Assembly (NCBI RefSeq): GCF_000020225.1
Contig: NC_010655.1
Coordinates: forward strand, 660,001 to 692,000
Direction of reading: 5' to 3'
Length of the DNA stretch: 32,000 nucleotides
Source of the DNA: Akkermansia muciniphila ATCC BAA-835
Lineage (GTDB): Bacteria > Verrucomicrobiota > Verrucomicrobiia > Verrucomicrobiales > Akkermansiaceae
The position numbers and the translations under genes were made by a program. The notes under the pieces were generated by a model, which saw nothing but the letters and a program-made list of their open reading frames with translations, made no database searches and had not been told where the DNA came from. This document shows positions 4,189 through 30,800 of the stretch, one piece after another (positions within the stretch are counted from its first letter, which is position 1; every line of letters begins with the position of its first letter).

Positions 4189-5817
4189 ATGATATTCCAT
4201 ATTCCTTTCATGTGCTCTACCCTGCGTTCCTCCATCATGTCCAGCATAGCCTTCTGGTTGCTTACCCTTGTCCCTTCACTGGCGGACAGGCCTAATATCG
4301 TCCTTATCCTGGCTGATGACATGGGATGGTCCGACCCGGGCTGCTACGGTTCGGAAATACCCACTCCAGCCCTGGATACCCTGGCCAGACAGGGGATGCT
4401 GGCAACCCGGCTCTACACCGCTTCCCGCTGTTCACCCTCCCGGGCCTCCATCATGACCGGCTGCGAACCTCACAAGGTGGACGTAGGGCTCCTGGATGAC
4501 GACAGCGGGCGCCCCGGCTACCGCGGACGCCTGAACCCGGGTATCCCCACCCTGCCGGAACTTCTGAAAAAAGCGGGATACCGTACCTATCTTTCCGGGA
4601 AATGGCATCTTGGAAAAGTTCGGGGATCCTACCCATGGGACCGCGGCTTCGACCGTTCCCGCGGTTTGCTGGGTGGAGCGGCAGATTACTACAGGCCCAT
4701 GCCGGACAGCCCCTTCGGTGAAAACGGGAAACTGCTCCGTCCGGAGGATCTGCCGGAGGATTTCTACATGACGGACGATATCACCAAAACGGCTCTGGCC
4801 TATATTGGCGATGCCGCCAAAAGCAGGCAGCCCTTCTTCCTTTACGTGGCTTATACGGCTCCGCATACACCCCTCCAGGCCCCCCGGAGGGAAATAGAAA
4901 AAATGCTCCCGTTCTACAACGGCAAATCCCCCCATGCCATTGCTTCCAAAAGACTGGAAAAACAAAAGCTGCTGGGAATCGTCCCTCCTGCCGCCAAACT
5001 GGGCATGGCCGGCAAATTCAATCCAGAAGGCTATGAAAAAACTTCCGCAAAGCGGAAGGATTATATTGCCGAATGCATGGCCACCTACGCCGCCCAAATC
5101 GTTATCATGGACCGCGGCATAGGCCGCATTCTCGCGTCCCTAGAACGTCACCGCCTCAGTGACAATACCATCGTCATGTTTTTATCAGACAATGGCGCAA
5201 CAGCGGAAATGCCCCAGAACAATAAAAACAAGAAGACTACCCTCCCCACAGGCCCGCTGGGAGAAGTCGGATGCAGGGACGGATACGGCCCCATGTGGGC
5301 GGCTGTGTCCAATACCCCTTACCGCCAGTATAAAATAGAAACCTTTGACGGAGGGCTGTCCGCCCCCTTCATCATTCGCTACCCTTCCAAAATACGTCCG
5401 GGATCGCGCTACCACTCGCCTTTCCTGCTTCAGGACATCGCCCCAACCTGCCTTGCGTGGGCCGCTCTCCCAATTCCGGCCCATATGGACGGCAAGCCGC
5501 TCAACACCTACTGGAATAATCCTCCGGAACTTCCTCCGTCCAAGGTGTGGGACTTCATTCCCAATACCTGCCCTCCCCGCACTATCTTCTGGGAACATCA
5601 GAGGAACCGGGCGGCCCTGACAAGTCAATTCAAGCTGGTGGCCCCCAACCGCGGCCCCTGGCAGGTGTACGACATCAGGGACAGGACGGAACAGAACAAT
5701 CTGGCATCCAGGCACCAGACGCTTGTAGAACAATTGTCCGCACAGTACAGGAAATGGGCGGCGGAAAACCATGCCGAACGACACAGCCCGGCAGAAAAAC
5801 GGGCATACGCGCCCTAA
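4189..5817 (+). CDS. Arylsulfatase (Cys-type, formylglycine-dependent). Start is uncertain; alternative Met codons at 4210 and 4237
   Basis: Contains NIVLILADDMGWSD and the C-S-P-S-R sulfatase signature (Cys codon 4429-4431) followed by ASIMTG. It also has the SGKWHLG, YTAPHTPL and LSDNG motifs and an N-terminal signal-like segment, IAFWLLTLVPSLA. Confidence 0.9.
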   Translation: MIFHIPFMCSTLRSSIMSSIAFWLLTLVPSLADRPNIVLILADDMGWSDPGCYGSEIPTPALDTLARQGMLATRLYTASRCSPSRASIMTGCEPHKVDVGLLDDDSGRPGYRGRLNPGIPTLPELLKKAGYRTYLSGKWHLGKVRGSYPWDRGFDRSRGLLGGAADYYRPMPDSPFGENGKLLRPEDLPEDFYMTDDITKTALAYIGDAAKSRQPFFLYVAYTAPHTPLQAPRREIEKMLPFYNGKSPHAIASKRLEKQKLLGIVPPAAKLGMAGKFNPEGYEKTSAKRKDYIAECMATYAAQIVIMDRGIGRILASLERHRLSDNTIVMFLSDNGATAEMPQNNKNKKTTLPTGPLGEVGCRDGYGPMWAAVSNTPYRQYKIETFDGGLSAPFIIRYPSKIRPGSRYHSPFLLQDIAPTCLAWAALPIPAHMDGKPLNTYWNNPPELPPSKVWDFIPNTCPPRTIFWEHQRNRAALTSQFKLVAPNRGPWQVYDIRDRTEQNNLASRHQTLVEQLSAQYRKWAAENHAERHSPAEKRAYAP

Positions 5818-6398
5818 ACGTTTCTATGGGAATCCCCTTCCGGAAGAAAATTCTGATTTCCGTTTCCTCAAGTAACGGAAAACGGCATGTGATTCACCGG
5901 GAAAGAAAAAGCAGGGAATAACAGTTATTCCCGTCCGCGGCAACATTCCTGTCTCCCGGGCATTCCGGGAACCATTCATTATTTTCACACTCCTTGCCAT
6001 CCTTTCCCATGAAGGGGAATTACATAAAAATCCGCTTCTTCATTCGGATTTTTCCTATGCCCTATTTTTTGCCCTGTAATCAAAAATAATTCCTTTATAA
6101 GGTTAAAACCAGGCAAAACACCGCTGTTTACCAAATCATTTCCCAAAAGGAAAACTCTTCTTTTTTCCTAACAATTATTGGAATAAAAGAATCCTTATCA
6201 TTCAAAGAAATACCGTATTAGAATACTTCTAAATTAGCAAAAAACTCATTGATTGTAAATAAACTTAATTTAAAATGCCATAAGAAAAAACCTTTCTGTA
6301 CCTTACCTTCGTTCTGCACAGCCGTCACATCAGATATGGAATATTTTTGATAATCAATTCATAACACACCTTTAACAAAACTTGCACAGCGTCTTTTT

Positions 6399-7289
6399 AT
6401 GTTCAAAGAGCCCTCTTTCCTCAAAAAAGCAAATCTGTTCCAGCCTATTCTGGTTGTCGTGATCTCCATCATCGGGGGAACTCCCATGGAAGGAGCCAAT
6501 ACGGGGAAAATAGTCCTTTTGATCATCCTGGGCGCCGCTTTCATTGTATGGCATGTGGAATGCCAGAGACTGCTCAACAGAAACCGGGAAACCAGGGAAC
6601 ATGCCTGCGCCCTGAAAAACCGCAGTGCGGCTCTTTACAAAAAAACTTACGCCGCCCTGAGCGGAGAATACGAAAACTTCGCCAATAAACTGAATGGAGA
6701 AAGTTGCCGGGAGGCAAAAACGGACGGTTCAAGGGGGACGACGGAAAGCTTCAACGGAGCCTGCCTGTTCCTGTGCTCCACCATTGCCGCTGCGCTGGCT
6801 GAATATAAAAACTCCCTTGTCTTTGAAGTGCTTTATATTCAGGCAGAGCGGAGGAAAGACCAAACCTTGCTGCACGTTATAGGCTACGCACAGGGAGAAC
6901 ACAATAACGACACCCCTTCCCTGCTGGCACAGCCTCCGCGGCCCGTAACGAAAACACCCGCCATGCTGGATGAACAATTATTCGCGGAACGCCACCTCAG
7001 CCCCCTGGTTCTTTCCAGCCCGGAAGAAGTGCAGCGCAGCTTTTTCCGGAAGCGCAACCAGCCTCCGGAGGAAAAATACATGCAGTATCTGGCCATTCCC
7101 GTCCTGAGCAAGAGAAATGAAATCATCGGGCTTATCGAAATCGCCGTTAAAAAAAATCCGTTCATTTCGCCCGTCACCATGCTGGAAGCCCATGAATTGG
7201 CCGACGTTAAATCATGGTTGTACCATTTAAAGGACCATTTCCTGTTGTTTCATGAAATAGAACGCGCCGTCCGGGATGGATTCCCATGA
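6399..7289 (+). CDS. Hypothetical membrane protein: two N-terminal TM helices plus a cytoplasmic domain with weak GAF-like character
   Basis: This is the only long ORF in a visibly lower-GC segment. The TM helices are ILVVVISIIGG and IVLLIILGAAFIVW. The C-terminal stretch YLAIPVLSKRNEIIGLIEIAVKK resembles the core strand pair of GAF domains. I recognise no confident family. Confidence 0.5.
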   Translation: MFKEPSFLKKANLFQPILVVVISIIGGTPMEGANTGKIVLLIILGAAFIVWHVECQRLLNRNRETREHACALKNRSAALYKKTYAALSGEYENFANKLNGESCREAKTDGSRGTTESFNGACLFLCSTIAAALAEYKNSLVFEVLYIQAERRKDQTLLHVIGYAQGEHNNDTPSLLAQPPRPVTKTPAMLDEQLFAERHLSPLVLSSPEEVQRSFFRKRNQPPEEKYMQYLAIPVLSKRNEIIGLIEIAVKKNPFISPVTMLEAHELADVKSWLYHLKDHFLLFHEIERAVRDGFP

Positions 7290-7531
7290 CGGCAGTACGG
7301 ACAGAATAGCCTGCTACGCCCAACGCCATATCCCTTAAAAATTTCCTGGGATATATATATTCCAGCCTATTTACAATCAACTACTTCCATCTTTTTAACC
7401 AGAACGGTTACCGCCATATAATGCTATTAACCTGTAAGTGAAACAGATAGCACTTGGGCCATTTTCTGCATCTGAAACAAGAAAGAGAAAACCCTGTAAA
7501 CTATTGAGTCCACAGGGTTTCAAAAAAGGAA

Positions 7532-7607
7532 TGGTACTTGGACCGGGACTCGAACCCGGGACCAATAGATTAAAAGTCTACTGCTCTACCAACTGAGCTA
7601 CCCAAGC
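7532..7607 (-). tRNA. tRNA-Lys (anticodon UUU), 76 nt with encoded CCA
   Basis: Folded by hand as a cloverleaf: acceptor GCTTGGG/TCCAAGT, D arm GCTC-AGTTGGTA-GAGC, anticodon arm GTAGA-CTTTTAA-TCTAT, variable TGGTC, T arm CCGGG-TTCGAGT-CCCGG, discriminator A, then CCA. Confidence 0.93.
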
Positions 7608-7692
7608 ACTTACCCTTGCTGGAAGGGCGCAAGCAGTAAACACCACACCCCCTTTCATGGCAAGCGTAAAATGGAAGATGGACAAAAAAAGA

Positions 7693-8124
7693 TCAGGATT
7701 CCATGCATTCCAGCCATCTCGCACGCCATTCGGCAGGAATACGCACAGGACGCCCCTGCGGCATCTGGACCAGGGCTAGCTGCTGATGAGCCCTGACCAG
7801 AAGATCATTATTGGAAGCGCGCCTCATTTCAAAATCGCACCAGAAGCGGGCCCGGTCCACGGATTGAAGCCATCCCGTCGTCAAAATGGTGTCTCCCAGA
7901 ACGGCCGGACGCACATAGTCAATCTCATGGCGCACCACTACGGCAAACTGCTGCAAATCGCTCATGGTTTTGTAATCCATTCCCAATTTAGCTCCAAGTT
8001 TGGTACGGCAGGTCTCAATCATGCGCAAATAGGCCAGGTTATGAACCACCCCGCCGCAGTCCGTATCATAAAACATGACTTCATCTTCCGTATGAAACAT
8101 CAGCTCCGGATTCATGCCTGCCAT
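7693..8124 (-). CDS. Acyl-CoA thioesterase, hotdog fold (4HBT/YbgC-like)
   Basis: The N-terminal motif V.FYDTDCGGVVHNLAYLRMIE matches the YbgC/4HBT catalytic-Asp region (v.yeDTD..G.V.h..Yl.y.e). The 143-aa length is typical. Confidence 0.85.
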   Translation of the reverse strand: MAGMNPELMFHTEDEVMFYDTDCGGVVHNLAYLRMIETCRTKLGAKLGMDYKTMSDLQQFAVVVRHEIDYVRPAVLGDTILTTGWLQSVDRARFWCDFEMRRASNNDLLVRAHQQLALVQMPQGRPVRIPAEWRARWLECMES

Positions 8125-8163
8125 TGTAAAAAGGAAACAGGCGGGCTGAAAGAAAATTCCGGT

Positions 8164-8964
8164 TCAGCCGCGCCATGCATGATGCGTCCGCGCCAGCGTC
8201 AGCACGCAGACGGAAGCAGCCCCGGAGCGGAGGAGCAGACGGGCGCAGGAGTCTGCCGTGGCTCCGGTCGTAAAAACATCATCCACCAGCAGCACATCCC
8301 TGCCCCTGACGGGGCTGCGTTTCATCCTTTTTTCATCCGCCGCATAAATTTTACGGGCATGTCTGAGCCGCTGCTCCCGCGACAAGCTGGCCTGGGGAAG
8401 CGTATCCGGCAGGCGTTTCAGCACGCCGGCATACGGCCAGCCCAGTTCCTCTCCCAGCAGAACCGCCAGTTCCTGCGCCTGGTTGTACCCCCTTCGAGCC
8501 TGTTTGCCGCGGTGCATGGGCACGGGAACGATCAGGCGTTTTTTCCCGCCGAACCAGTGAGGATTTCCACGCACTGCCTCTGCCATCATCTGCGCGAAGG
8601 AGCCGGCCAGATGAACGGCTCCCCCATATTTGAAAGCCAGCAGAAGATCCCGCAATGATCCCGTATTCACATACACGGCACGGGCTTCCTCAAAAGAGGG
8701 GAGAGCTACCGCGCAGCGACGGCATAATCCGGACGGGATGAAGGAACCCTCCGCCGGTTCCCCGCAGACGGCACAGAAGGGAGGCTCGACAGGCACGAAA
8801 CTTCCGCGGCAGTCCGGGCAAACATGGCAGCCATCCAGGCCGCCGCGGCCGCATAACTCGCAGACAAAAGGATACACCCAGGAAAGCCATTCCCTGACAA
8901 CCGACCTCAGCATTCCCCGCACGGCAGAAAGTTGAAAGAGGCTCCTATCGTTCGCACTTCCCAT
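8164..8964 (-). CDS. comF: ComF family protein (phosphoribosyltransferase-like, ComFC type)
   Basis: An N-terminal zinc-finger-like region has Cys pairs (CELCG..CPDC, CAVCG..CRRC). The C-terminal PRTase motif is VLLVDDVFTTGAT. The ATG at 8964 overlaps the upstream gene by 20 nt; Met 8913 is an alternative start. Confidence 0.88.
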   Translation of the reverse strand: MGSANDRSLFQLSAVRGMLRSVVREWLSWVYPFVCELCGRGGLDGCHVCPDCRGSFVPVEPPFCAVCGEPAEGSFIPSGLCRRCAVALPSFEEARAVYVNTGSLRDLLLAFKYGGAVHLAGSFAQMMAEAVRGNPHWFGGKKRLIVPVPMHRGKQARRGYNQAQELAVLLGEELGWPYAGVLKRLPDTLPQASLSREQRLRHARKIYAADEKRMKRSPVRGRDVLLVDDVFTTGATADSCARLLLRSGAASVCVLTLARTHHAWRG

Positions 8965-12994: not shown

Positions 12995-14200
12995 ATGAAA
13001 TCCAGATCGGAAGAATTTGAAGAGTGGGGGACGGAAGTCATCTTCGGCCGTGCCAAGGGATTCCGCGCTGCCATGATGCGCATGATCCTGCGCGGCGCCT
13101 CCTGGCTGTTCAGGCTGGTGGTTCTGGCACGGCTGTATCTGTTTCATTCCAGCATCGCCAGGCAGGCCAGGCTGGGAATGCTGGTGGTCAGCGTGGGCAA
13201 CATCACCGTGGGAGGAACCGGAAAAACCCCGGTGGTGGAACTGCTGGCCCGCACCCTTACCCGGCGCGGGCGCAAAGTAGCCATCCTGACACGCGGCTAC
13301 AAGAGCGCAGAGCTGGATAAACCTCAGGAATGGAGGGACAAGGACGGCAGGCTGCCGGAGAATCTTCCCAAAATCGCCAGCGACGGGAAAACGCGCTACC
13401 TGGGCCCCCTGCATTCCGGAGATGAACCTTTCATGCTCGCCAAAAATCTGGACGGCGTGGCGGTGCTGGTGGATAAAAACCGCATCAAGTCCGGCATCTT
13501 CGCCATTGAGCACCTGGGGTGCGACACCCTGTTGCTGGACGACGGCATGCAATATTTGAAACTGGCGCATGAACTGGATATCGTGCTGGTGGATTGCGGC
13601 GCGCCCTTTGGCACCGGAGCCATGCTCCCGCGCGGCACCCTGCGGGAACCCAGGAGCAGTCTGGCGCGCGCCAGTTACATCATTCTGACCAAATGCGGCG
13701 GAAAGCCACAGGATGAGCTGATCTCCGCCATCAGGAAGTACAATCCCGTGGCGGACATCATCGTGAGCGACCACGGCCCCCGGTATCTGGAAAATGTGTT
13801 CACGGGGGAACGCCTTCCTCTGGAGGCCCTCCGGGGGAAATGGGTGGCGTGCCTCAGCGGCATCGCACGTCCGGAAAGTTTTGAAAACTCCCTGCGCTCC
13901 CTGGGCGCCCACGTGGAAATCTGCCGCAGGTTTCCGGACCACCACTGGTTTGAACAAACGGAATTGCAGGAATTTTACGACCGCTGCGCAGACCGGGCCA
14001 TGGACATGATCGTAACTACGGAGAAGGATGCCGTGCGGCTGGAAAAACCGGAGGAAAAACCGGAGGTCCCTATCTATTTCCTGCGCATTGAGGTGGAAAT
14101 TTACCAGGGCCGGGAGGCATGGGAACGTTGTGTAGACCGCATCTGCGGAATTTCAGAACCGCGCCCACGGGATGAATGGATGCCTTCTTCATCCCTTTGA
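12995..14200 (+). CDS. lpxK: Tetraacyldisaccharide 4'-kinase (lipid A biosynthesis)
   Basis: An N-terminal membrane helix is followed by the P-loop [16 protein letters not shown], then ILTRGY and LLDDGMQ, all typical of LpxK. Confidence 0.92.
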
Positions 14201-14307
14201 CATGGTTCACGTTTCCTGAGGTTTTCCGGAAATTCACCTCTTTTATGCAGAGAAGGCCGCTTGACTTGCCCGGAAAATCGTGTGAAACAAAAAGGCAGTA
14301 TTTTCCC

Positions 14308-17300
14308 ATGAAGGCATTTACCATCACCTCCATTCTGGCTGCTGCGTGCCTATTTCCGTCCTATTCACCGGCCGGAACTGCAGCAGGAAACAAGATTCAG
14401 GCTGCCTCAATGCAAACGGCGGCAGGCATTCCCAAGCAGGACCCCCAGCTTATCCAGGGGAAGCTCGCCAACGGCCTGACCTACTTCATCCGCCCGAACG
14501 CGGAACCCAAGGGCCGGTTCAGTATCCGCCTGCGCGTCAACACGGGTTCCCTGAATGAAACGGATGACATCCAGGGCGTTTCCCACTTTCTGGAACACAT
14601 GGTTTTCAACGGAAGCACCCATTTCAAGCGCGGGGAAATGGTTCCCGCCATGCAGAAAGAAGGCCTGGGCCTGGGAGGGGACGCAAATGCGTACACCGCC
14701 TTTGACGAAACCGTGTACATGATGGACGTGCCCAGCATGAAGGAATCCACCGTGGACCTGGCTTTCACCATCATGCGGGATTTTGCGGACGGAGCCCTGC
14801 TGGAAGAAAGCGCCATTGACGCGGAACGCGGCATCATCACCAGCGAATACAAGGTGCGCGACTCCGCCGGTTACCGGGTCATGAAGGAAGTCTTCTCCAT
14901 CATGCTGGACGGCACCCGCATTCCCGACCGCTATCCCATCGGCACGCTGGAAGTAATCCGCACCGCGCCGCGGGAAAAATTTATCAATTATTATCGGACC
15001 CACTACGTTCCCAGCCAAATGCAGCTCGTCATCGCCGGGGACATCACACCGGAACAGGGAAAAGCCTGGGTGGAAAAGTATTTTGGCTCCATGAAGAAGG
15101 ACAACTATTCCTTCCAGACGGACCGGGGCACGCTTAAAACGGCTACGGAAACCACCGCCCACTGGATTACCAACAAAGAGGCCACCAGCACGGAAGCCAG
15201 CATCAACATCGCCCGGCCCTATGTGAAAAAGCCGGATACCGTCGCCAACCGCAACAAAGATATCCCCCTGAACGTGGCTTACGCCATGCTGAACCGCCGG
15301 CTGGAAAAGATGGCGAAGAATGCGGACTGCCCCTTTATCTCCGCGGAAGGAGGCCGCATGGACATAGTGGAAGCGGCGGAAGTGGATTCCATTCAGACCC
15401 AGGCGGACTACAAGAATTGGAAACCGGCTCTGGCCGCCATTGAACAGGAACTGCGCCGGGCCATCGAATTCGGCTTCAACAAGGAAGAACTGGCGGAGGC
15501 CCGCAGCAACATTACCGCCGCCGCGGAAAACGCCATCAAGTCCTGGGCCACCGCCAAGTCGGAAGACCTGGCTTCCGCCATCGCCCAGAGCGCCGCACGG
15601 GACAAGGTCTTCACCACGCCGCAGGAAGACTGGGCCATCTCCAGGGAAGTCGTGGAAAACCTGACGCCCGAACAATGCCAGGCAGCCCTGAAGGAAGCCT
15701 GGACCGGAGCCTTTCCCCGCGTGATCGTCACTTCCAATAAGGAAAACCCCCAGGGAAGCGCCGAAATCATGAAAGCGTACCGGGAATCCCAAACCGCTAA
15801 AGTACAGCCCTACCAGGCGGACAGCCGCAAGGATTTTTCCTATAAGTTCGGAGATCCCGGCAAGGTGACGGCCCGTACGGAAACCACCGACCTGGGAGTC
15901 ACCCAGCTCACCCTGTCCAACGGCATGCGCGTCAACCTGAAGCCCACGGAATTTGACAAGGACTCCATCAACATCACCTTTGCCGTGGACGGCGGGGAAC
16001 TGAGCAGGCCGGAAAAAGCCTCCGGGCTGGAACTTTTTGCGAATGCCGTCATGAACGGCGGCGGTTTGAAAGACCACTCCAATGACGAACTGGCCGCCAT
16101 CATGGCAGGCAAGAAGGTAGGGGTAGGCTTCTCCATGACGGACCGCTTCTTCCTGCTTTCCGGAAACACCAACAGGGAAGACCTGGAAACGCAACTCCAG
16201 CTCCAGACGGCCTACCTGATGCACCCCGGTTACCGACAGGACGGCGTTACCCTGCTCCGGCGGGCCATTCCCATGATTTATAACAAGATGGACCATGAAG
16301 TGCAGGGAGCCATGAAGAAGCAGGTTCCTGCCATCCTTTACAAGAACAATCCCCGGTTCACCTTCCCCACCCAGGAACAGCTTACCTCCTACCAGGTCAA
16401 GGACGTGCGGGACTGGGTGGATGCCCCGTTGAAAAACAACTACATGGAAGTGACCGTTACGGGAGACTTCAGGACGGAAGACATCATCCCCCTGCTGGAA
16501 CGCACCGTAGGAGCGGTTCCCAAACGTGCGGAAGCTCCGGCAACGCTGGATGAAACGCTTCGCCATCCGGCCATGGCGGACTTCAATTTCTCCAAGGACC
16601 TGACCTATGACTCCTCCATTGATAAAACGATGGTCTGCCTTTTCTGGAAAACGCCCGGCGGAGAAAATAAAAAGCTGGCCCGCAGGCTGAACATGCTCAA
16701 GGCCGTCTTCTATGACCGCGTATTCAAGGGCCTGCGCGAAGACATGGGGGAAACCTACTCCCCTTCCACCGGCCTCAATATCAGTGAAACCTATCCGGAC
16801 GACGGCTATATCATCACGATGAGTTCCGGCGTCATGCGCAATAAGGAGGCCGTGCGCAGCGCCATCGCCAGAATTGCGGACGACCTCGGCAAGGGAAATA
16901 TCACCCAGGAGGAACTGGACCGTGCCCGCAATCCCATTCTTAACTCCATGGACCGCGCCCAGCGCGACAACGGTTACTGGACATCCCTGCTGAAAGACTC
17001 CCAGGCCAAGCCGGAACGGCTGAACCAGCAGAGGGAAAGCATTCCGGACGTAAAAGCCATCACCGTGGAAGAGGTCAACAAACTTGCCAAAGAGATCTTC
17101 GGCAAGGGAGAGCATCTCAACCTGAACATTCTGCCGGATCACCCGGCTGCGGAAACTCCGCCTGCTGAAAAGCAGGCGGACAAAGCCGACTCTCCCCAGG
17201 CCGCCGTCTCCCCGGCGGCTTTTTGCGTTCGCGCCACCGTCGTGAAGACTGTAAAAAAAGACTCCGGCAAAAATGGATATGCCATCATCATTTCCGAAGA

Positions 17301-18738
17301 AACAGCTTCAATGCCGGCCTGGAAGGCCGTGGCGGACAAACTGGCTGAAAAACACGGAGGCTCCATCGTCACCGTGAAAGATTCCGTATTCTCCAAGCTG
17401 GACACGCTCAAAAAAATGGCTCCACGTTTCATGGCCGTCGTCGCACGCCCGGAGGAAATAGACCGGGTGCTGGTGAATGACCTGCACCGCCTGAGCCGCC
17501 GGCTGGACGACGACCCTTACGGGGACTGTATCTGGGGCATTGTCACGGGGTACACCCCGCAGGCCGCCATGAGAATAGCCTCTGAAACGAAGCCTCTCGT
17601 CATCAGCCGTGCCATGGGAACTACCAACGTGGATTCCTCCCGATTCAAAGACAGCATGAGCATCACGGACTGGCAGCCCTTCCAATACCTGGAACAGCAT
17701 GGCTCCAAGGGCAAGGTAACGCCGGCTTTCTACACGAAAGGCCTGAAAGAACAGGACAAGGGGGATGAAACCACGCTGGGCGTAACGCCCAAGCTTATGG
17801 AATACTGGAAACGTTATTCCCCGCAGCTCTTCGTAACGGCCTCCCACGCAACCCAGTTTAATCTGGAAATGCCTTTCGGCAAGGGACTCATCGTTTCCGG
17901 CAACAACCGGTTCTACGCTCTGGACAAAAAACAATTCAGGGAATTCACCACTTTTTTGCACGGCGTGCTCTTCAACGGAAAGGAAGACGACCTTCTCTCC
18001 TTCCTTAAGAGAATTAAAGCGCCGGTGATTGAAACCAGGCCGGTTCCGGCTGTCTGGGTCGCGGCTGGGAACTGCTTGATCGGAGATGCCAAGAAGACGA
18101 AAAATTCCATGGCTGTCACCGCCCTGAGCCGCTACGGCTTCAACCAGCTGGTAGGCTACACCGTCCCTTCCTGGTATGGCAAGGGCGGCTGGGGGACGCT
18201 GGGCCTTCTGTTCAGCAATCATGACGCCTCCAGCCTGGCGGAAGCCTGGTATTTGAACAACCAGTTCATTCTGGACGAGACTATGACCCACTTCCCCAAG
18301 CTCATGGACGTCTATTTCAACTCCGCGGATATCAATGGAATCAAGGATGATCCGGACTTTGCCAGGGGCATGAACTCCGCCGGATACGGCATGGGCAAGG
18401 ACCAGCTGGGGCTTATCCACGATCGGGATACCGTGGCCTTTTACGGAGACCCCGCCTGGACGGCGCGCCTGGACGAATCCCGGGCTCCGTCCCCGTGGCA
18501 TATCGACTGGAATGACCCGGCAGATGCCTCCAAAGGGTTCACCGTCACAGCCAACAAAGACGCCAAAGGTCGCCTGGGAGTCTGGTTCCCCAATCGGATC
18601 AACGCCGGCAAGGCCACCGTCACCATTGGCGGAACCGCCACTCCCATTGAAAAGGCAGGCCTGCTGACCAACGACTTCCTGCTGCTCCGGGAACTGGAAC
18701 TCAAAAAGGGAGAAAAAGCCGTCGTGGAAATGGAATAA
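14308..18738 (+). CDS. Secreted multidomain peptidase: PqqL-like M16 zinc metallopeptidase (two M16 halves) fused through a Pro/Ala-rich linker to a roughly 500-aa C-terminal gingipain-like (C25, clan CD) domain plus a terminal beta-sandwich-like tail
   Basis: The signal peptide is MKAFTITSILAAACLF... The inverted zinc motif HFLEH is at 14584-14598, with the downstream AERGIITSEY Glu region. A second M16 pair follows, up to about nt 17140. The linker is PAAETPPAEKQADKADSPQAAVSPAA. The C-terminal domain shows His (SHA, 17845-17847) and Cys (GNC, 18073-18075) each after a hydrophobic strand, and YGDPAW near the domain end. I start at Met 14308 because the upstream 44 codons overlap lpxK. Confidence 0.9.
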   Translation: MKAFTITSILAAACLFPSYSPAGTAAGNKIQAASMQTAAGIPKQDPQLIQGKLANGLTYFIRPNAEPKGRFSIRLRVNTGSLNETDDIQGVSHFLEHMVFNGSTHFKRGEMVPAMQKEGLGLGGDANAYTAFDETVYMMDVPSMKESTVDLAFTIMRDFADGALLEESAIDAERGIITSEYKVRDSAGYRVMKEVFSIMLDGTRIPDRYPIGTLEVIRTAPREKFINYYRTHYVPSQMQLVIAGDITPEQGKAWVEKYFGSMKKDNYSFQTDRGTLKTATETTAHWITNKEATSTEASINIARPYVKKPDTVANRNKDIPLNVAYAMLNRRLEKMAKNADCPFISAEGGRMDIVEAAEVDSIQTQADYKNWKPALAAIEQELRRAIEFGFNKEELAEARSNITAAAENAIKSWATAKSEDLASAIAQSAARDKVFTTPQEDWAISREVVENLTPEQCQAALKEAWTGAFPRVIVTSNKENPQGSAEIMKAYRESQTAKVQPYQADSRKDFSYKFGDPGKVTARTETTDLGVTQLTLSNGMRVNLKPTEFDKDSINITFAVDGGELSRPEKASGLELFANAVMNGGGLKDHSNDELAAIMAGKKVGVGFSMTDRFFLLSGNTNREDLETQLQLQTAYLMHPGYRQDGVTLLRRAIPMIYNKMDHEVQGAMKKQVPAILYKNNPRFTFPTQEQLTSYQVKDVRDWVDAPLKNNYMEVTVTGDFRTEDIIPLLERTVGAVPKRAEAPATLDETLRHPAMADFNFSKDLTYDSSIDKTMVCLFWKTPGGENKKLARRLNMLKAVFYDRVFKGLREDMGETYSPSTGLNISETYPDDGYIITMSSGVMRNKEAVRSAIARIADDLGKGNITQEELDRARNPILNSMDRAQRDNGYWTSLLKDSQAKPERLNQQRESIPDVKAITVEEVNKLAKEIFGKGEHLNLNILPDHPAAETPPAEKQADKADSPQAAVSPAAFCVRATVVKTVKKDSGKNGYAIIISEETASMPAWKAVADKLAEKHGGSIVTVKDSVFSKLDTLKKMAPRFMAVVARPEEIDRVLVNDLHRLSRRLDDDPYGDCIWGIVTGYTPQAAMRIASETKPLVISRAMGTTNVDSSRFKDSMSITDWQPFQYLEQHGSKGKVTPAFYTKGLKEQDKGDETTLGVTPKLMEYWKRYSPQLFVTASHATQFNLEMPFGKGLIVSGNNRFYALDKKQFREFTTFLHGVLFNGKEDDLLSFLKRIKAPVIETRPVPAVWVAAGNCLIGDAKKTKNSMAVTALSRYGFNQLVGYTVPSWYGKGGWGTLGLLFSNHDASSLAEAWYLNNQFILDETMTHFPKLMDVYFNSADINGIKDDPDFARGMNSAGYGMGKDQLGLIHDRDTVAFYGDPAWTARLDESRAPSPWHIDWNDPADASKGFTVTANKDAKGRLGVWFPNRINAGKATVTIGGTATPIEKAGLLTNDFLLLRELELKKGEKAVVEME

Positions 18739-18864: not shown

Positions 18865-19398
18865 ATGACTGATTACTCCATTTTCTTTATCATCGCCGTA
18901 GTAGCGACGGGCGTGGGAGCGCTCCTGTTTCTCCTGTCCCTGTTCGGGCTGGGGGAACATGATCTGGACTTTGATGCGGATTCCGGCGGAGCGGACGTAG
19001 GGTTGCTGTCCATCAAATCCGGCATCGGCTTTTTTCTGGGCTTCGGCTGGGGCGGCGTGCTCGCCCAGGGTCTGGACTGGGGGATGGCCGCCTCCCTGGC
19101 GGCGGCTTTTTTCACCGGCGTGCTGATGTTCCTGATTATCGGCATCTCCATGCGTTTCATTATGAGCCTTAAATCAGACGGCACCCTGAATTATGAAACC
19201 CTCAAGGGAATGACCGGCTCCGTTTACATCAGCATTCCCGGAAACCTCCAACGCGGCGGACAAGTTACAATCGCCCATCCCAGCCAGCTGCTGTACCTCC
19301 CTGCCGTCCAGGAAGGGGAACATCCCCTGCCCTCCGGAACCCCGGTGGAAGTGGTAGCCGTCACTGCGGGAATCGTCACCGTCAAACCTCTTCATTAA
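18865..19398 (+). CDS. NfeD-like membrane protein, short form (YqiJ-like: TM helices plus C-terminal OB-fold barrel)
   Basis: The N-terminal half is hydrophobic and Gly-rich (FFLGFGWGGVLAQ). The C-terminus GMTGSVYISIPG..GGQVTI....G.PVEVVAVTAGIVTVKPL fits the NfeD beta-barrel. It lies 33 nt upstream of a flotillin gene, the same arrangement as E. coli yqiJ-yqiK. Confidence 0.8.
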   Translation: MTDYSIFFIIAVVATGVGALLFLLSLFGLGEHDLDFDADSGGADVGLLSIKSGIGFFLGFGWGGVLAQGLDWGMAASLAAAFFTGVLMFLIIGISMRFIMSLKSDGTLNYETLKGMTGSVYISIPGNLQRGGQVTIAHPSQLLYLPAVQEGEHPLPSGTPVEVVAVTAGIVTVKPLH

Positions 19399-19431: not shown

Positions 19432-20934
19432 ATGGACAAAATCATCCCCATCGCCATTCTGGTTCTCTTCATCATTCTGACCGCTTCCTGGCTGTTCAGC
19501 CGCTACCGCATGTGCCCTCCGGACAAAATCCTCATCGTCTTCGGGAAAGTAGGCACAGGCCAGCCGGCCAAATGTTACCACGGCGGCTCCACCTTCGTGC
19601 TTCCGGTTCTCCAGTCCTATAGCTACCTGGATCTGAACCCTATCAATATTGACGTGCCCCTCCAGGGCGCCCTTTCCTCCCAGAACATACGCGTGGATGT
19701 GCCCTCCTCCTTCATCGTGGGCATCTCCACCCTCCCTGAAATCATGCAGAACGCCGCTGCGCGCCTGCTGGGCCGCTCCCGGGAGGAAATCCGCAACCTG
19801 GCCGCGGAAATCATCATGGGGCAGATGCGCGTGGTGATTGCCTCCATGACCATTGAGGAAATCAATTCCGACCGCGAAAAACTCATCAAGGGCATCACGG
19901 AAGGCGTGGACGTGGAACTGCACAAAGTGGGCCTCCATCTCATCAACGCCAATATCACGGACATCCAGGACGCTTCCGGCTACATCAACGCCCTGGGCAA
20001 GGAAGCCGCTGCGCGCGCCATCAATGACGCCACCATCAAGGTGGCGGAAGAAACGCGCCGCGGGGAAATCGGCAAAGCGGAAGCGGAAAAGGACCAGACC
20101 ATCCAGGTGGCGAACGCCCGCGCCATCGCCATTGAGGGCCAGAACGAAGCCCAGATTAAAATTGCGGAATCCGCCGCCAAGCTGCAAGTGAAGCAGGCGG
20201 AGGCCAAAAAGCTGGCGGAAGTGGCCCAGAAGGTGCAGGAGGCTAAAACCCTGGAAGAAGCCTACCAGGCGGAAAAAGAAGCGGAATTGAAGCGCGCGGA
20301 ACGCGAACGCGCCACGCAGGAAGCCAACATCCTGGTAACGGCCCGCATTGAAAAGAGCCAGCGCGAAGTGCAGGCCCAGGCCACGGCGGAAGTACTCAAA
20401 CTGGAACAGGAAGGCAAGGCGCAGGCTCTGCTCATCCAGCGCAGGGCGGAAGCGGAAGCCATCCGCCAACTGGCGGAAGGCGAAGCCCAGGCTACCCTCC
20501 TGAAGAAAAAGGCGGAAGGGGAAGGCATGGAAATGGTGGGACGCGGTGAAGCGGCCGCGATTGAAGCCGTGCTGGAAGGCAAGGCCCGCGGTTTTCAGCA
20601 GATCGTCCAGGCGGCAGGTTCTTCCGAGGCCGCTTCCAACCTGCTGGTGACGGAACAGCTTACCAAGATTGTGGAGCTCCAGTCCGGCGCCATTAAGGGG
20701 TTGAAATTCGACAAGGTAGTCGTCATGGGCAATGGAGGGAACTCCTCTGTGGGAGGATTCGTCCAGAATCTGGTAAAGGATACGCTGCCCCTTCATGAAC
20801 TCGGCAAAAGCGTAGGGCTGGAATTGCCCGCTTTTCTGGGCAAACCCATGGAAGGGAAAACCGCAGCTTCCTCCCCTGCTCCCGCAGCCGATGCCCCGGC
20901 GGCAGATACCGCAACCGCCGTCAACCCGAGTTAG
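19432..20934 (+). CDS. Flotillin / SPFH (band 7) domain protein, YqiK-like
   Basis: An N-terminal membrane anchor and SPFH domain (RVDVPSSFIVGIS, EEINSDREKL) are followed by a long Ala/Glu/Lys-rich coiled coil with EA repeats and an Ala/Pro-rich tail. Confidence 0.92.
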   Translation: MDKIIPIAILVLFIILTASWLFSRYRMCPPDKILIVFGKVGTGQPAKCYHGGSTFVLPVLQSYSYLDLNPINIDVPLQGALSSQNIRVDVPSSFIVGISTLPEIMQNAAARLLGRSREEIRNLAAEIIMGQMRVVIASMTIEEINSDREKLIKGITEGVDVELHKVGLHLINANITDIQDASGYINALGKEAAARAINDATIKVAEETRRGEIGKAEAEKDQTIQVANARAIAIEGQNEAQIKIAESAAKLQVKQAEAKKLAEVAQKVQEAKTLEEAYQAEKEAELKRAERERATQEANILVTARIEKSQREVQAQATAEVLKLEQEGKAQALLIQRRAEAEAIRQLAEGEAQATLLKKKAEGEGMEMVGRGEAAAIEAVLEGKARGFQQIVQAAGSSEAASNLLVTEQLTKIVELQSGAIKGLKFDKVVVMGNGGNSSVGGFVQNLVKDTLPLHELGKSVGLELPAFLGKPMEGKTAASSPAPAADAPAADTATAVNPS

Positions 20935-24749: not shown

Positions 24750-24888
24750 ACGCCAAGCTCCCGCCATTTCCCTGCCGGACGAGCCCTGACGTTACCAGGC
24801 CGCTCTGGAGTTGTTCCGGAACGGCTCTGGAGGGTCAGGAGGAAGGCCTTTCGGGGGTGGGGGGCCTCTCCTTGTGTTTTCTTTCTTG

Positions 24889-27800
24889 TTAGAAGTCGTG
24901 GCGGTAGCCGATGCTTCCGTTCAGCGCGCTGGACCCGTCACGGATGTCCGCGTTCCCGTTCACGTAGATGGTTCCCTTCGTTCCCACCGGCACGCTCAGT
25001 CCGGCTCCCAGCTGCAGCGCCGTCGTTCCCACTTTCGCCCCCCTCACGCTTTGCGCGAAGCCGGGGTTGCCCAGCAGAGAGACGTTCGTTTCCCCTCTCC
25101 GGTCTCCCAGGTCCTGCGCCGCGTTTACTCGGATTTCCGCCAGCGCTTCTCGTCCGAAGATGTTGCTGCCCACCAGGCCCATCCACCGGCCGCCCAGCGC
25201 CAGCGTCCCCGTCGTCCAGTCCTGCCTGCCGACGTTCAGGCCCGCGTTGCCCGCACCCGTTTCCTCATAGCCGTCCATCCGCGTCGTCACCACCGAGGCG
25301 TTGAACAGCGGCTGCAGCACGCTGCTGCGGTTTTCGTTGAGGTATACGTCGTAGGTGAGTTCATACATCGCTCCAAAGCCCCACCCGCTGGTGCTTCCCT
25401 GCGTCCCGTAGCTTCCTTCCCCGTAGTTGACCGTACGGTTGAGTTTCGCGTCGTTCCACCCTCCCGTCAGGATGAGCGTGTGCGCCCAGCGCCTGTCCTG
25501 GTAGCGGCCGAAGAGGCTGGCGTAGTAGCTGTCCAGGTGCCCGTCGGCGCTGTCCGCCGCGCCGGCCGTCAGGTCGCCGTAGCTGGCCGTGAAGGCCGCT
25601 CCCACTGTGAGGCGGTCGCTGAGGTCCGCGTCCACGCCTACCGTACCTCCCCAGGTGGTGAGCTGGTAGCCGCTTTCATCCCCGCGGGTGTCCAGTTTGG
25701 CGTAGGAGCCCGTGCCTTCCATCCACATGTGGAAGCGGGGGAGGTCGTCGTTGACGTAGGCCGGGTTGACGCCCATGAGGGTGGTCCGGTTCCTGATCCA
25801 GCCCATCTGGTCGCGCAGGGCGTCCCTCTGCGCCGTCCCAAGCGCGTTGACCGTGCTCCCAGCCATTGCTGCCAGGGAACGCCTGGCGGCGGAAGGATTA
25901 TTGAGCATATCGTTATTGAGGGCGCCCAGGAAATCCGTGACGGCCTGGTCTATGGAACCATGCCTGGCAGCATCCCAAAGCAGATTGGCGCCCGCCATGG
26001 AATTGGCCGTGTCCGCTACGCCGGCATAGATATTGTCCGTCTGTTCTTCCGCTTTCAGAACCACCTTATCTCCTTCCTGCACCAGATGGGCATTCTTGTA
26101 ATAGGTGAGGAAAAGGCCTCCGACCGTCAGCGTATTTTCTCCCAGGTCAATCGTTCCGTTGCCGGTGAGTTCCATCAGCGTAAGTTCCATCGGATTGCCC
26201 GATTTCCAGGTGATATTGACATCCGGGATTGAGGTGACATGGAAAGAGGCGCCATCTTCAATGACAACGTCGCCGGAGACCTCAATGAAGCTGGCGGTCA
26301 TGTCGGCATCAGTATTCAAGGTGAAGGTGGTGGCGGATCCGCTGCTGAAGGAAGCGTTCTCTACGCTCAGAGTGGTATTGACCGCCGTCAGGGAGTTGTC
26401 GCTGGCCTGGATGGTCAGGTTGCCGCTGTTGACCAGATTGCCGTAACTGAGACGGGCTCCGTCCACATCCGCCTTGCCCTGGAGAACCAGATTCCCTCCG
26501 CTGATTGTCAGACCGGTATCCGCGCCGGAGCTGCGCAAAACCTGCGTTCCCGCTCCGGAAACATCCAGCGTTCCTTCTCCCAGCGTTCCTTCATATGTAT
26601 GCGTCTGGCCGGAAGCCGCCTGAATTTGCAGAGTCTGCCCATTCAGTTCCAAGGAACCGGAGCCGTTCAGTCCGCCGGCAGAGCCGTCTGCCTCCAGGCT
26701 CAGGGAACCGCCCAGATCCAGCACCACGCCGGAAAGCGTACTGTCCGCAGCCAGCCCCAAAGAGGCGCCTTCCGCAATAGCCAGCGTACCGGTTCCGGCA
26801 ATTTCCGTATGGGAAAGGCCGTCGGTAGCGCCTGTCAGCGTCAATGTTCCGGAAGAAGCGATATCCAGCTTTCCGCCGTTGTCGCCGCCTGCCAGCGTCC
26901 GGGCCGTCGCGCGGCCTCCTACTCCAATCACCGCAGGGGAGTCCGCATCCGCGGAATTAAGATGCAGAGCTTCCACGTCAGCCGTGCCGTTAAGCTGAAG
27001 CGTTCCTTCTTCCGCAATGATATCCCCGGCCAGCGTCACATTCCCGGACAGGGTGAGTTTGTTCGCTCCCGTTTTGACGAGGTCCGTGTTGGCCGCAGCA
27101 CCGTTCAGGCCGCTGATGTCCCCGGCAAAAGAGGTATCCACTCCCATGCCTTCATGGAAGAGGTTGTTTTGAAGTTCGATGCTTCCCTTATCCTCCGCCG
27201 TATTGGTGACAATCAGGTTGCCCGTGCCCGTCTGGCCCGGGCCAGTTCCCGGTGCGGTCAGGTTTTTGATCACCATGGAGCCGTCCGACTGGACATAAAG
27301 GTCCTGGTCCACAATGACGGCCTGGTAGAAATTGAGAGACTGGTCCGTGACCGGATTGTCCGCGCTGCCCGTACCATCCACGGAAGACACGTAAACCAGG
27401 TCCGTATCACCGGAGAGGACGATGCTGCCTCCGTTGACGCCCACGATGCCGAAGCCCAGCGCAGCAAAAAGCGGGTTAGCCGTCATGTGGCTCTTAAGCG
27501 TTTCAAGATCCTGTGCAAAACCGCCATTGGTCAGAAGTATCTCCAGATTTCCGCCCGCCGTTTTCATGGCATCCATAACGCTGGTGAGGTCCAGCGTAAG
27601 CGTGGAGCCGTCTCCAAAGGAGATGCTGCCCAGATTATCCCCCGTGCCCTCAAACTGAATCAGAAAGTCCTCTCCCGAGAAGGGGTCTCCGGAAATATTG
27701 CCCGCTCCCACTGCAAGACTGCTGTCCGTGCCGTTCACCGTCCAGATGGAACCCTGCTTGAGTCCGGTGAGCTGCGTTCCGGCAGAAGCGGTGACAACTG

Positions 27801-30800
27801 ACCCCAGCCCGGCGGCATCCAGATCTCCCAGGGCAATATTGCCGGAATCGGCAATCGCATTGACATGGACCTTGTTTGTATCCGTTCCCGCGTAGCTTCC
27901 GGCGTTCGCCAGCGCTCCGGACTGAATAAGGATATTAGTAGCGGCGGCCGCTCCGGAAAGGTCCAGCGTGCCCTTGGCCAGCGTCAGCGTCCCCGTCAGG
28001 CCGTTGGCACGGTCCCCCACTGCAAAAGAGCCGGAAGTGCTGACCGTAAGATTGCCTGCTCCGGCAATGGTTCCGGCCCAGGCGGCGTTGTCCCCGGTTC
28101 CGTCGCCCAGCTGGACAGAGGAATTCTGGGCAATATTCAACTCTCCCGTGGTCGTATTCGCCCCGGTAAGAATCAGCTTGTCGCTTCCCTGAACGCTCAG
28201 GGAGGCCGTATCAATCACATTCCCGGCATAAAGCAGGTTCCCTGCCGTACCCGTGTAGTTGACGCGGTAGGTTCCGGTTCCTCCCAGGGAAACTGCCTTG
28301 ATGAATTCGCCCGTATTCAGCGTGGACGCCGCACCGCCGTTGCCAAAGGAAAGGATGGCATTCCCACGGCCGGAATGCACCGTTCCCGCAAAACCGGTGA
28401 GATCCCCCGTAAAAATGGCCGTCAGAGTCGGGTCACCGGCCGCCGTTACTCCCAGGTTGGCGTCCGCCTCGCCCGTCAGGCTTCCCGCCAGGACCAGCGT
28501 CTGGTTGGAACTGCCGTTCAGCCATCCCCCAGCGGCCATCACATGGATATCGGCATTAACGGGATCGGCGGCGGAATTAACAAAAAAGCCGCGCCCATCC
28601 AGTTCCAATCTGGCGCTGCCGATTGCAGCGGCATTGGCAAAGCCGACTTCATTCCACGCAGCATTGGTGCCGTTGCCCGCCAGTCTCATGGTACCGGTAA
28701 AGCCGCTGTTGTCTCCGGTAACGGAATAGCGGCCGCCGCCGGGGAAGGTACCTCCTTCCTTCTTACCGAGGACCAGCGTTCCGGCTCCGGTAATGCGGCC
28801 TGACAGAGTATCCGTATTTACGGAGTTATGGGCACGGTTGTCCTGTATCTGGAGAGTCGCGTTTTCAGCGATGGAAATGTTTCCGCTCCAGGTTCGCGTA
28901 ACGCCGTTGTCTCCGATGTTATAGAACAGAGTCCCTCCGCTTACGGTGATGGATCCGGCAAAGATTCCTCCTTGTATTGTATTGATAGTCAGCAGGCCGT
29001 CTCCAAGCTTGACGATATCCTTATCTCCCAGTTCCTGGGTGTATGCAGCCCAAGACACATGATTGCCGTTCGTATTCACTCGGATGGCATTTGTGCTGGC
29101 GGCTGAATCAATGAGCCCGGAAATATCCTGCGTGGCCCCCGTTCCATATGTGAAGGTACCCCCTCCAAAAACAATCTTGTTGGCCGCTACCAGCCCCAGC
29201 GTTCCTTCCGTCGTGCCTGCCGTATTCAGCACCAGTTCCCCCCCGTTCAGCGTCACCGTACCGGTGCCCAGCCCCTGGACGGCATTGAGGTTGAGGGTAC
29301 CGGCCATAATGGTCGTGCCGCCGGAGAACGTATTTGTTCCAGTATTTTCAATGGTCAGCACCCCCTCTCCCCGTTTAATGAGGGACATCGGATCTGCTCC
29401 GTCCACAAGAGCCCCTGTTCCCGTGAACGTGTAGGCCGTTTCTCCATTGTTGACCGTAAGACGCGCGGAAGAAACATTCCCTTCTATGGTGACGGCAGAG
29501 GCGGATATGCCAGCCAGATCTTCAAAATTGGCGGATTTGGCGGCGTCATAAACGACTGCCGTCCCATCCTTGTCCAGCCAGACGGCAGAACCTCCTGCCG
29601 CCGTCCAGATACCCGCATTTCCTCCGTTCCAGTTGAGGGCTTCTCCCAACGCCTTGACTCGCAGGTAAAGAGTGTTTCCGGACAACTCCAGGGCGTAGGT
29701 ATAATCTTCGGAAAGGCCGCTGGAATCAAAAGAAAAATTGCTGGCCGTCAACGTACCGAAACTGCCCGCCGTAATCAGCCTGTAGTCATTTTCCATCGTC
29801 TGGTCCACCCCGCTGATCGCCAGGGTCAGCGTGCCTTCCGTATTAAAGGAGAGCGTGCCTCCCGACTGGATGACGGCGGAGCTGGAGGAATTCAGCCCCG
29901 TCAAATCCATCGTCAGAACGGAAGACGGGGAAAGAGCCATATTGCCCGCAGAGGTAAGACGGGCTCCGGAGCCCATCGTAATGGAGTTGCCGAAGGCCAC
30001 TCCGCCGGCAAGCCCGAAACTGAGCTCCCCAGAGGAAACTGTCAGCGCATTCGCAAATCCGGTGGAAGAACTGAGCGTGAGCTTGCCCGCTCCGCTCTTG
30101 GTAAAAGCACTACGGCCATCCAGCACCGTTGCGTTGGCAATAACGGCATCCGTCCCTTCTCCAGCGGAAATTTCGTCAAACCCGGAAATGGAGGCGTTCG
30201 TGAACATGTCCGCGCGCGTCACTCCGTTCAAATTCAACACGCTTCTGGTAACCGTATCCCCCCGGCCCTGGCCGGAAAGAGTTGTCGTTCCGGTAAAAAT
30301 GGCGTCATTGCCCGTAATGGTCACGTTGGCCAAAGCCGTAGTCAGGGCAGTGCCATTGACCTTCTGGCCGCCCGCATAAATGGAAACATTATTGAACGTC
30401 CCTCCGCTGATGGAAAGATTGGCTTCCCCAATCGTCAACGCGGAACTGGTATTGTTGCGTTCCACATAAGTGCCCAGGGATATTTGAGCTCCATCAAATG
30501 TGCCGCCCGTAATTGTTATATTGGTGGAACCGATATTCCCGGTAAGGGCGGCGGTAGCGGTTCCGTTAATATAGGAGCCGCCCCAGATTTGTCCCGTATA
30601 TGTCCCGGACTTGAAAGTCAAATTGGTGGAACCTGTAATATTCAACGTGCTCTCCCCCGTTTCCACCCAGCTTCCCCCCGCAATCATGGCCGCCACGGTG
30701 CCGCTGCCCAAGTCCAGCGTCATATTGGTATCCGCCAGGTTCCAGGCAGACGTGCTTAAACGGGCGCCCGCAAAGATTTTCTTGGTCCCGTCTCCGGAAA

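Follow-up and report, generated by a model that had tools for sequence, protein, structure and literature searches.

A PqqL-type M16 metallopeptidase of Akkermansia muciniphila fused to a C-terminal domain with likely remote homology to the gingipain cysteine peptidases

Introduction

Does a protein annotated only as an M16 metallopeptidase carry a second peptidase of unrelated catalytic type? The question is raised by a gene of Akkermansia muciniphila ATCC BAA-835 that occupies positions 14308-18738 on the forward strand of a 32,000-nucleotide stretch of contig NC_010655.1 (positions 660,001 to 692,000), the whole of which is referred to here as the window. The gene encodes an M16 module followed by about 500 further residues. 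An identical protein of 1476 amino acids (aa) is recorded for A. muciniphila on 668 contigs, where its only names are 'insulinase family protein / M16 family metallopeptidase', and the fusion protein is conserved throughout the genus Akkermansia. One third of this M16-annotated protein is a domain that is unannotated in Pfam, in NCBIfam and in the recorded source names, and a literature search found no paper that describes it. A. muciniphila is a medically prominent gut bacterium and one of the leading candidates for a next-generation probiotic. Little is understood of how it deals with the protein component of mucin.

A preliminary description, made from the letters of the window, had proposed that the extra residues form a gingipain-like domain (family C25, clan CD) with a His and a Cys as its catalytic pair, in a protein of an organism of the mucus layer. 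The last point is correct, given the organism for which the exact protein is recorded. Here we propose that the domain represents a new, highly divergent C25-like subfamily that is fused to an M16 peptidase in the Akkermansiaceae lineage, and that the fusion protein probably has two different protease sites.

Results

Architecture of the fusion protein

Translation bore out the open reading frame (ORF) of 1476 aa, and the motifs picked out beforehand (HFLEH, GYAIIISEE, LFVTASHA, YGDPAW and others) were all located where the preliminary description had placed them. Its proposed range for tests of the C-terminal part, 17226-18735, was one base out of frame; the in-frame range is 17227-18735. The C-terminal 503 aa encoded by this range are referred to as the C-terminal domain (CTD), and residues such as His207 and Cys283 are given in CTD numbering. 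The features of the gene are as follows.

14308-18738 (+): whole gene, M16 and C25-like fusion, 1476 aa plus stop (ORF list, translation)
14308-14373 (+): probable N-terminal signal peptide, MKAFTITSILAAACLFPSYSPA (read off and inferred from the sequence)
14431-17100 (+): PqqL-type double M16 unit, residues 42-931 (phmmer against the PDB, Pfam)
14584-14598 (+): HFLEH, M16 zinc-binding/catalytic motif, residues 93-97 (translation)
14824-14847 (+): ERGIITSE, ExxxxxxE segment, residues 173-180, with Glu180 as the expected third zinc ligand (motif)
17134-17223 (+): Pro/Ala-rich interdomain linker PDHPAAETPPAEKQADKADSPQAAVSPAAF, residues 943-972 (translation)
17275-17301 (+): GYAIIISEE (translation)
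17278-17619 (+): N-terminal alpha/beta sub-domain of the CTD, CTD residues 18-131 (AlphaFold2, conservation)
17428-17463 (+): FMAVVARPEEID (translation)
17509-17556 (+): DDPYGDCIWGIVTGYT (translation)
17620-18462 (+): central sub-domain of the CTD, putatively catalytic and C25-like/clan CD, CTD residues 132-412 (AlphaFold2, Foldseek, Pfam on relatives)
17845-17847 (+): putative catalytic His codon in LFVTASHA, residue 1180 (CTD His207), after the strand at 201-204
17965-18045 (+): insertion confined to this subfamily, about 27 residues long, lying between His and Cys at CTD 247-273 (gap in BLASTP against P0291)
18073-18075 (+): putative catalytic Cys codon in VWVAAGNCLIGD, residue 1256 (CTD Cys283), within G-N-C-L-x-G and after the strand at 275-279
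18442-18459 (+): YGDPAW, last strand and motif of the catalytic sub-domain, counterpart of gingipain FGDPSL
18463-18735 (+): closing domain of beta-strands only, sandwich-like, CTD residues 413-503 (DSSP on the AlphaFold2 model)

AlphaFold2 modelled the whole CTD with a predicted local distance difference test score (pLDDT) of 94.3 and a predicted template modelling score (pTM) of 0.93; the central sub-domain modelled alone reached a pLDDT of 93.4, and the start of the CTD model, on the side of the linker, has low pLDDT. The N-terminal sub-domain is predicted to follow a beta-alpha-beta-alpha-beta-alpha-beta-alpha order and contains the invariant residues R91, D94, D96 and D100 (RRLDDDPYGD). 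In the predicted secondary structure, His207 and Cys283 each lie just after a beta-strand, as in clan CD peptidases. The tail consists of eight strands with pLDDT above 95, and DSSP assigned strand as the only regular structure at CTD residues 413-502, in agreement with the beta-sandwich-like tail that had been anticipated; no Pfam match to this tail was found.

Intermediate sequences link the CTD to family C25

Evidence for a relationship to gingipains comes from distant members of the CTD family. Of 53 such members scanned against Pfam, two matched Peptidase_C25 (PF01364), whose curated cut-off is 23 bits. The key intermediate is P0291, which aligns with CTD 18-415 by BLASTP (E 3e-44, 29% identity) with the His, Cys and YGDP of one sequence paired to those of the other, and which is matched by the profile of the CTD homologue alignment (A1) at E 7e-67, making it an unambiguous family member. 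PF01364 matches residues 156-354 of P0291 over model positions 194-374 of 374 (36.6 bits, E 4e-9). His and Cys both fall inside the matched segment, as does the closing YGDP, where the model ends. Because this same segment carries the motifs of the CTD family (GNCLIG, GYTxxSWYGxxGWG, LNNQ and YDRD), P0291 is not a chimera. P0322 (36.7 bits) and P0326 (35.3 bits) also exceed the cut-off, with E-values of 4e-9 to 1e-8 across the three proteins, and P0354, P0411 and P0284, which share 34-38% identity with P0291, give sub-threshold matches in the identical register (21.4, 20.7 and 17.2 bits, respectively). Some family members carry sorting domains of the type IX secretion system (T9SS), as gingipains do.

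When the central sub-domain was submitted to Foldseek, seven of the ten best PDB matches belonged to clan CD, all of them weak and none at E <= 1e-3. Five of the seven were chains of SAVED-CHAT, the best at E 0.019 with a probability of 0.69, a TM-score of 0.30 and a root-mean-square deviation of about 12 Å. The other two were C11 iotapain, at E 0.17, and CED-3, at E 0.39. Clostripain ranked 26th (E 1.6). A search of a viral structure library matched nothing. Profile-profile alignment with hhalign, for which the RgpB reference sequence was identical to PDB 4IEF chain B and the C25 comparison alignment comprised 20 gingipain-like sequences, gave P 0.14 with the larger profile and 0.044 with the short-subfamily profile in the best runs, neither of which is significant. 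The non-significant register pairs GNCLIG with VAC(244)VNG, SGH-A with TGH(211)G, and YGDPAW with FGDPSL of RgpB. When extended, the alignments are collinear over the whole length and recover each of the landmark pairings with gingipain R that had earlier been made by eye, although the alignments themselves are not significant.

Several results weigh against this relationship. PF01364 does not match the CTD even at E <= 1, and at E <= 10 it still misses all 94 close homologues. Nothing meaningful came back when PDB sequences were searched (phmmer and profile) with the CTD, with alignment A1 and with P0291. The probability given by hhalign was 0.2% for A1 against either RgpB or the 20-sequence C25 alignment, 0.2-0.4% with the larger profile included, and 0.2-1.2% over all runs, those with the short-subfamily profile among them. 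With the whole CTD model, no PDB match from Foldseek reached E <= 1e-3; those returned were generic ones of the Rossmann or periplasmic-binding-protein kind to the N-terminal sub-domain, and no gingipain stood among the top 50 matches of the central sub-domain. The residue after the His is Ala, whereas a Gly (G212 after H211) is invariant in the 20 gingipain-like sequences; in the CTD family, Gly follows the His in 24 of 142 representatives. Pfam found neither the C25 propeptide (PF08126) nor the C25 Ig-like domain (PF03785), and in stand-alone members the signal peptide runs straight into the first strand. The beta-sandwich predicted for the CTD does occupy the C-terminal place that corresponds to the Ig-like domain, but it fits no profile. 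Finally, only one clade of intermediates exceeds the Pfam threshold, and the link rests on these intermediates. A local hidden Markov model was built from the gingipain-like alignment, which has too little breadth beside the Pfam seed, and at E <= 10 it recovered no member of the family.

The CTD's own profile score does not place it in C25 as that family is now defined; its homology to the family is supported through intermediate sequences. The gingipain-like domain of the preliminary description holds by way of P0291 (E 3e-44) and the PF01364 scores of 35-37 bits, and does not hold by direct Pfam, PDB, hhalign or Foldseek searches; taken to the letter, these direct searches gave the outcome, no C25 or clan CD fold, that the description had named as speaking against it. 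On balance, we consider remote homology of the CTD to C25 or clan CD likely.

A different assignment was also considered, namely a nucleophile elbow of the class I glutamine amidotransferase or DJ-1 type (G-x-C-x-G with a later His). It was rejected, as His398 is not conserved (mostly Trp or Tyr) and Foldseek gave no such match.

The CTD family and its His/Cys pair

A family match to the CTD itself was found in neither Pfam nor NCBIfam. Homologue searches returned 650 sequences from one database and 1,087 clusters at 50% identity from another, so the CTD is a real domain family and not a chance resemblance. The family extends over Verrucomicrobiota, Planctomycetota, Armatimonadota, Latescibacteria and others, and its members mostly stand alone, at about 500 aa, with a signal peptide of their own and no propeptide.

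The His/Cys pair proposed in the preliminary description proved to be conserved. His207 and Cys283 are invariant in the 94 close homologues, and among diverse cluster representatives the His is kept in 137 of 140 and the Cys in 138 of 141. We also examined 86 loci, drawn from 80 species-representative genomes (all Akkermansia, Akkermansiaceae or Verrucomicrobiales) and six metagenome contigs; GNC is present in every one and the His motif in at least 84. Other near-invariant positions are R91, D94, D96 and D100, the G-N-C-L-x-G motif, G310, Y311, W316, G318, G321 and W322, as well as D399, R400, D401, G407, D408 and P409. RxxDxDPYxD, GYTVxSWYGxGGWG, LNNQ and DRD are motifs of the family's own. 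Both putative dyad residues are lost in P0167 (Ala and Ser) and P0290 (Phe and Asn), and in P0155, an M16 fusion of 1465 aa, Gly replaces the Cys; judged by these substitutions, the three proteins may be natural pseudo-enzymes.

The codon positions confirm the His-to-Cys spacing of 76 residues, which had been taken as a hint that the domain might be inactive. Across the family this spacing is bimodal: most clusters have about 50 residues, and the Akkermansia-type subfamily has 75-77. As the insertion at CTD 247-273 explains the bimodality, the long spacing reflects a loop insertion and not decay of the site, and the hint falls away. BLASTP against P0291 indicates a second subfamily-specific insertion at about CTD 358-389.

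Two observations concern the annotation of the family. Stand-alone CTD proteins of about 500 aa (P0034, P0037, P0076, P0100, P0107, P0330, P0342 and others) are named 'zinc protease' by the Joint Genome Institute despite having no M16 domain, and the name was probably transferred from the M16-CTD fusions. Many metagenome assemblies call the CTD separately from an internal Met start, as in P0001 and P0002 (475 or 423 aa; 138 and 144 member sequences), and such calls give the impression of a free-standing domain in A. muciniphila, whose complete gene encodes the fusion.

The N-terminal two thirds form a PqqL-type M16 module

The preliminary description had read the N-terminal part as a PqqL-like double M16 unit, and both Pfam and the alignment to E. 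coli PqqL support it. Peptidase_M16 (PF00675) matches residues 64-188 with 88.8 bits against a cut-off of 22.3, and Peptidase_M16_C (PF05193) matches two stretches of the fusion protein, above its curated cut-off, at 112.2 bits. In phmmer searches of the PDB, residues 42-931 align end to end with residues 4-891 of E. coli PqqL (6ofs, E 3e-68) and in a full-length alignment with the FusC-type structure 6b03 (E 2e-33). The HxxEH motif is kept in all 80 related loci that have the M16 N-terminus on the contig. From established knowledge of the M16 motif, and by motif alone, we take Glu180 to be the third zinc ligand. With the Pfam matches, the HxxEH motif plus Glu and the four-domain single chain, the module shows the characters of the M16 family, and the N-terminal two thirds of the protein are an M16 protease of the ordinary PqqL type, its zinc site intact. 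As had been noted, M16 character ends before the C-terminal part, and Pfam matches nothing in the last 503 aa.

The CTD and the M16 module are genetically linked

In all 86 loci an M16 gene lies directly upstream of the CTD on the same strand, either fused to it in frame (72 loci) or, split at the point of the linker, as a separate adjacent gene (14 loci). By contrast, the distant stand-alone members P0117, P0097 and P0162 have no M16 neighbour. Cooperation with M16 is therefore not intrinsic to the family, which counts against the functional model set out below. Together, these arrangements suggest that the CTD is a module that is autonomous and exported, and that its link to a PqqL-type M16 peptidase became obligate in the Akkermansiaceae lineage.

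Other partners occur elsewhere in the family. The family's domain is fused to Transglut_core in 18 of the 53 distant members scanned (for example P0190, P0212, P0217, P0241, P0247 and P0268). FGE-sulfatase, alpha-L-fucosidase, HEAT, EF-hand and protein kinase partners occur in single cases, and FG-GAP and SHD1 domains are further partners, with P0256 and P0275 among the proteins listed.

Translation start and probable signal peptide

Translation from 14308 starts with the probable signal peptide listed above, in which Cys14 is possibly a lipoprotein-type Cys. Some genome annotations (P0294, P0296) instead use an ATG at 14176, which extends the gene by 14176-14307 and yields a product of 1520 aa. 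Because the 14176 start overlaps the 3' end of lpxK (12995-14200) and leaves the product without a signal peptide, 14308 is the better start, and the upstream one is probably mis-called.

Neighbouring genes and other features of the window

Directly downstream of the protease gene, 18865-19398 (+) is an ORF of 177 aa that contains hydrophobic stretches and matches no Pfam family, and 19432-20934 (+) encodes a 500-aa SPFH/Band 7 (flotillin-like) protein; the two resemble an NfeD-like/flotillin pair. Further downstream, a 2302-aa ORF at 24889-31797 (-) has three matches to the passenger-associated-transport repeat (PATR) and, on these matches, probably encodes an autotransporter-type surface protein. 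The forward-strand ORFs that overlap it (24811-26232, 26239-27801 and 27865-28803) have no Pfam match and are probably spurious.

Upstream, 4189-5817 (+) encodes a 542-aa S1-type sulfatase (Pfam Sulfatase, E 2e-54). Ten carbohydrate sulfatases of A. muciniphila are discussed in PMC13524802, and this protein may be one of them. The stretch 6001-8700 has a G+C content of 0.46, compared with about 0.57 elsewhere in the window. It contains a tRNA gene at 7535-7607 (-), flanked by ORFs at 6399-7289 and 7786-8658 without Pfam match, and may be a small acquired islet adjoining the tRNA. A plasmid search gave no match.

Discussion

Proposed function and alternatives

The reading that we favour, and hold to be reasonably probable, is that the protein is an exported two-module peptidase in which a PqqL/FusC-type M16 enzyme and a divergent C25 homologue carry out a two-step degradation. 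Module 1 (residues 42-931) is a clamshell M16 zinc peptidase with an intact HFLEH...E site, and module 2 (residues about 990-1476) comprises the N-terminal alpha/beta part, the central sub-domain and the closing beta-sandwich. The chamber of an M16 clamshell enzyme admits peptides and small unfolded chains only. In the proposed scheme the Cys/His module would act first, as an endopeptidase that cuts folded or large substrates, and the M16 chamber would then degrade the resulting fragments; the endopeptidase, tethered to the chamber or, in species where the genes are split, co-exported with it, would supply them. The substrates could be de-glycosylated mucin or other host or dietary proteins. 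Catalysis by the Cys/His pair, the substrates, export and localisation, and the cooperation of the two sites are what we infer from sequence and models.

A broader form of this proposal, which we regard as possible but doubtful, is that the CTD family constitutes a new and widespread clan CD family of its own, apart from C25, which has been repeatedly recruited beside modules that cleave or modify proteins. In A. muciniphila the fusion would then be a two-step cell-surface machine for the protein backbone of mucin or host proteins, and could be Amuc_0576. That the CTD is a C25-like Cys/His enzyme with a non-degradative role seems unlikely. As such it would be a transpeptidase or sortase-like enzyme (cf. 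PorU), an amidase or an acyl-transferase, acting possibly on the M16 module, on M16 products or on a component of the cell envelope. C25 is not a purely degradative family, since PorU (6za2) was retrieved as a C25 relative of RgpB; the absence of a propeptide from the CTD family is unusual for a broad-spectrum secreted cysteine protease; fusion to protein-modifying modules is frequent (Transglut_core in 18 of 53, FGE-sulfatase); and the additional invariant residues D399-R400-D401, Y311, W316 and W322 suggest a specific pocket. Yet no specific sign of a transpeptidase acceptor or of a sorting signal is seen in Akkermansia, the neighbours of the fusion gene are of the housekeeping kind (lpxK, the SPFH/flotillin pair), and a proteolytic cascade is the simpler account of an obligate link to a degradative M16 oligopeptidase.

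We give little weight to the idea that the CTD is a dead pseudo-protease serving the M16 chamber as a substrate-binding, docking or regulatory module. The 76-residue spacing with its two subfamily insertions (CTD 247-273 and about 358-389), the Ala in place of Gly after the His and the lack of a significant direct match to an active protease family would all fit such a role, but more than 230 sequences with mutual identities of only 30-45% have kept the His and Cys nearly invariant, the dyad residues are lost together in rare variants, the family consists mostly of autonomous secreted proteins without M16, and the long spacing is a clade-specific loop insertion. It is similarly improbable that the likeness to C25 and clan CD is spurious; in that case the CTD would have a new fold or be a Cys/His hydrolase of other ancestry, and short convergent motifs (GH, C-x-x-G, GDP) would account for the Pfam matches. 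Every direct profile-profile and structure comparison was indeed insignificant, and TM-scores to clan CD were only 0.25-0.30. The Pfam matches, on the other hand, cover about 180 model positions and exceed the cut-off in three proteins, the identical register recurs in three further lineages, independent hhalign runs agree on the His/His and Cys/Cys register, and the clan CD share of the best fold matches (seven of ten) is joined by a three-part architecture like that of gingipains.

Relation to Amuc_0576 and significance

One M16 peptidase of A. muciniphila, Amuc_0576 (K07263), has been found in the outer-membrane fraction, and its abundance was higher on mucin (PMC4960237); a transposon mutant of Amuc_0576 is listed with a growth effect on mucin (log2 fold change -1.79; PMC12619756). 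In the window a sulfatase gene precedes the fusion gene and a PATR autotransporter gene follows it, a plausible order that is compatible with the fusion gene being Amuc_0576.

The CTD probably bears a second, cysteine-type site related to those of the gingipain virulence proteases of Porphyromonas. If it is active, inhibitor, probe and mutant studies of proteolysis in Akkermansia must reckon with two sites in one protein. An active CTD would also provide a functional assignment for more than 1,000 sequence clusters from bacteria of the Planctomycetes-Verrucomicrobia-Chlamydiae (PVC) group and other environmental bacteria, and its recurrent fusions to M16 and transglutaminase-like modules would become testable hypotheses on coupled protein processing.

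Comparison with known systems

The M16 module most closely resembles the periplasmic four-domain M16 proteases PqqL of E. coli and FusC of Pectobacterium, with which it shares full-length likeness and an HxxEH motif in the first domain. The solved PqqL and FusC chains, at 913-924 aa, leave no room for the extra domain of 500 residues found in the fusion protein. The genes for PqqL and FusC are linked to TonB-dependent receptors; no TonB-dependent receptor gene was identified among the scanned neighbours of the fusion gene (lpxK upstream, SPFH/flotillin downstream).

For the CTD, the clan CD structures SAVED-CHAT (8TL0), iotapain (6NAG), CED-3 (4M9R) and clostripain (5L20) show a weak fold likeness to the central sub-domain (E 0.02-1.6, TM-score 0.16-0.30) and the same order of His then Cys after consecutive strands, with no sequence similarity. 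PorU (6ZA2), the C25-like sortase of the type IX system, is a C25 relative that shows the fold at work in processing or transpeptidation and not in bulk proteolysis; it was retrieved with RgpB (E 2e-8), whereas direct similarity between it and the CTD is not detectable and no type IX context was found in the window. The phylum of A. muciniphila has no known type IX secretion system.

The gingipains RgpB and Kgp (MEROPS C25, clan CD, PF01364; 1CVR, 4IEF, 4RBM) differ from the CTD in that the direct sequence and fold matches are not significant, the CTD has no N-terminal propeptide, its His is followed by Ala and not Gly, and His and Cys are 76 residues apart compared with 33 in RgpB. The CTD has in addition extra helical insertions, invariant motifs of its own family and a fusion to M16. 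What the two have in common is an alpha/beta N-terminal sub-domain, a catalytic sub-domain and a beta-sandwich in that order, with a His after one strand and a Cys after another further on, the Cys being followed by C-x-x-G, and a closing [FY]GDP strand.

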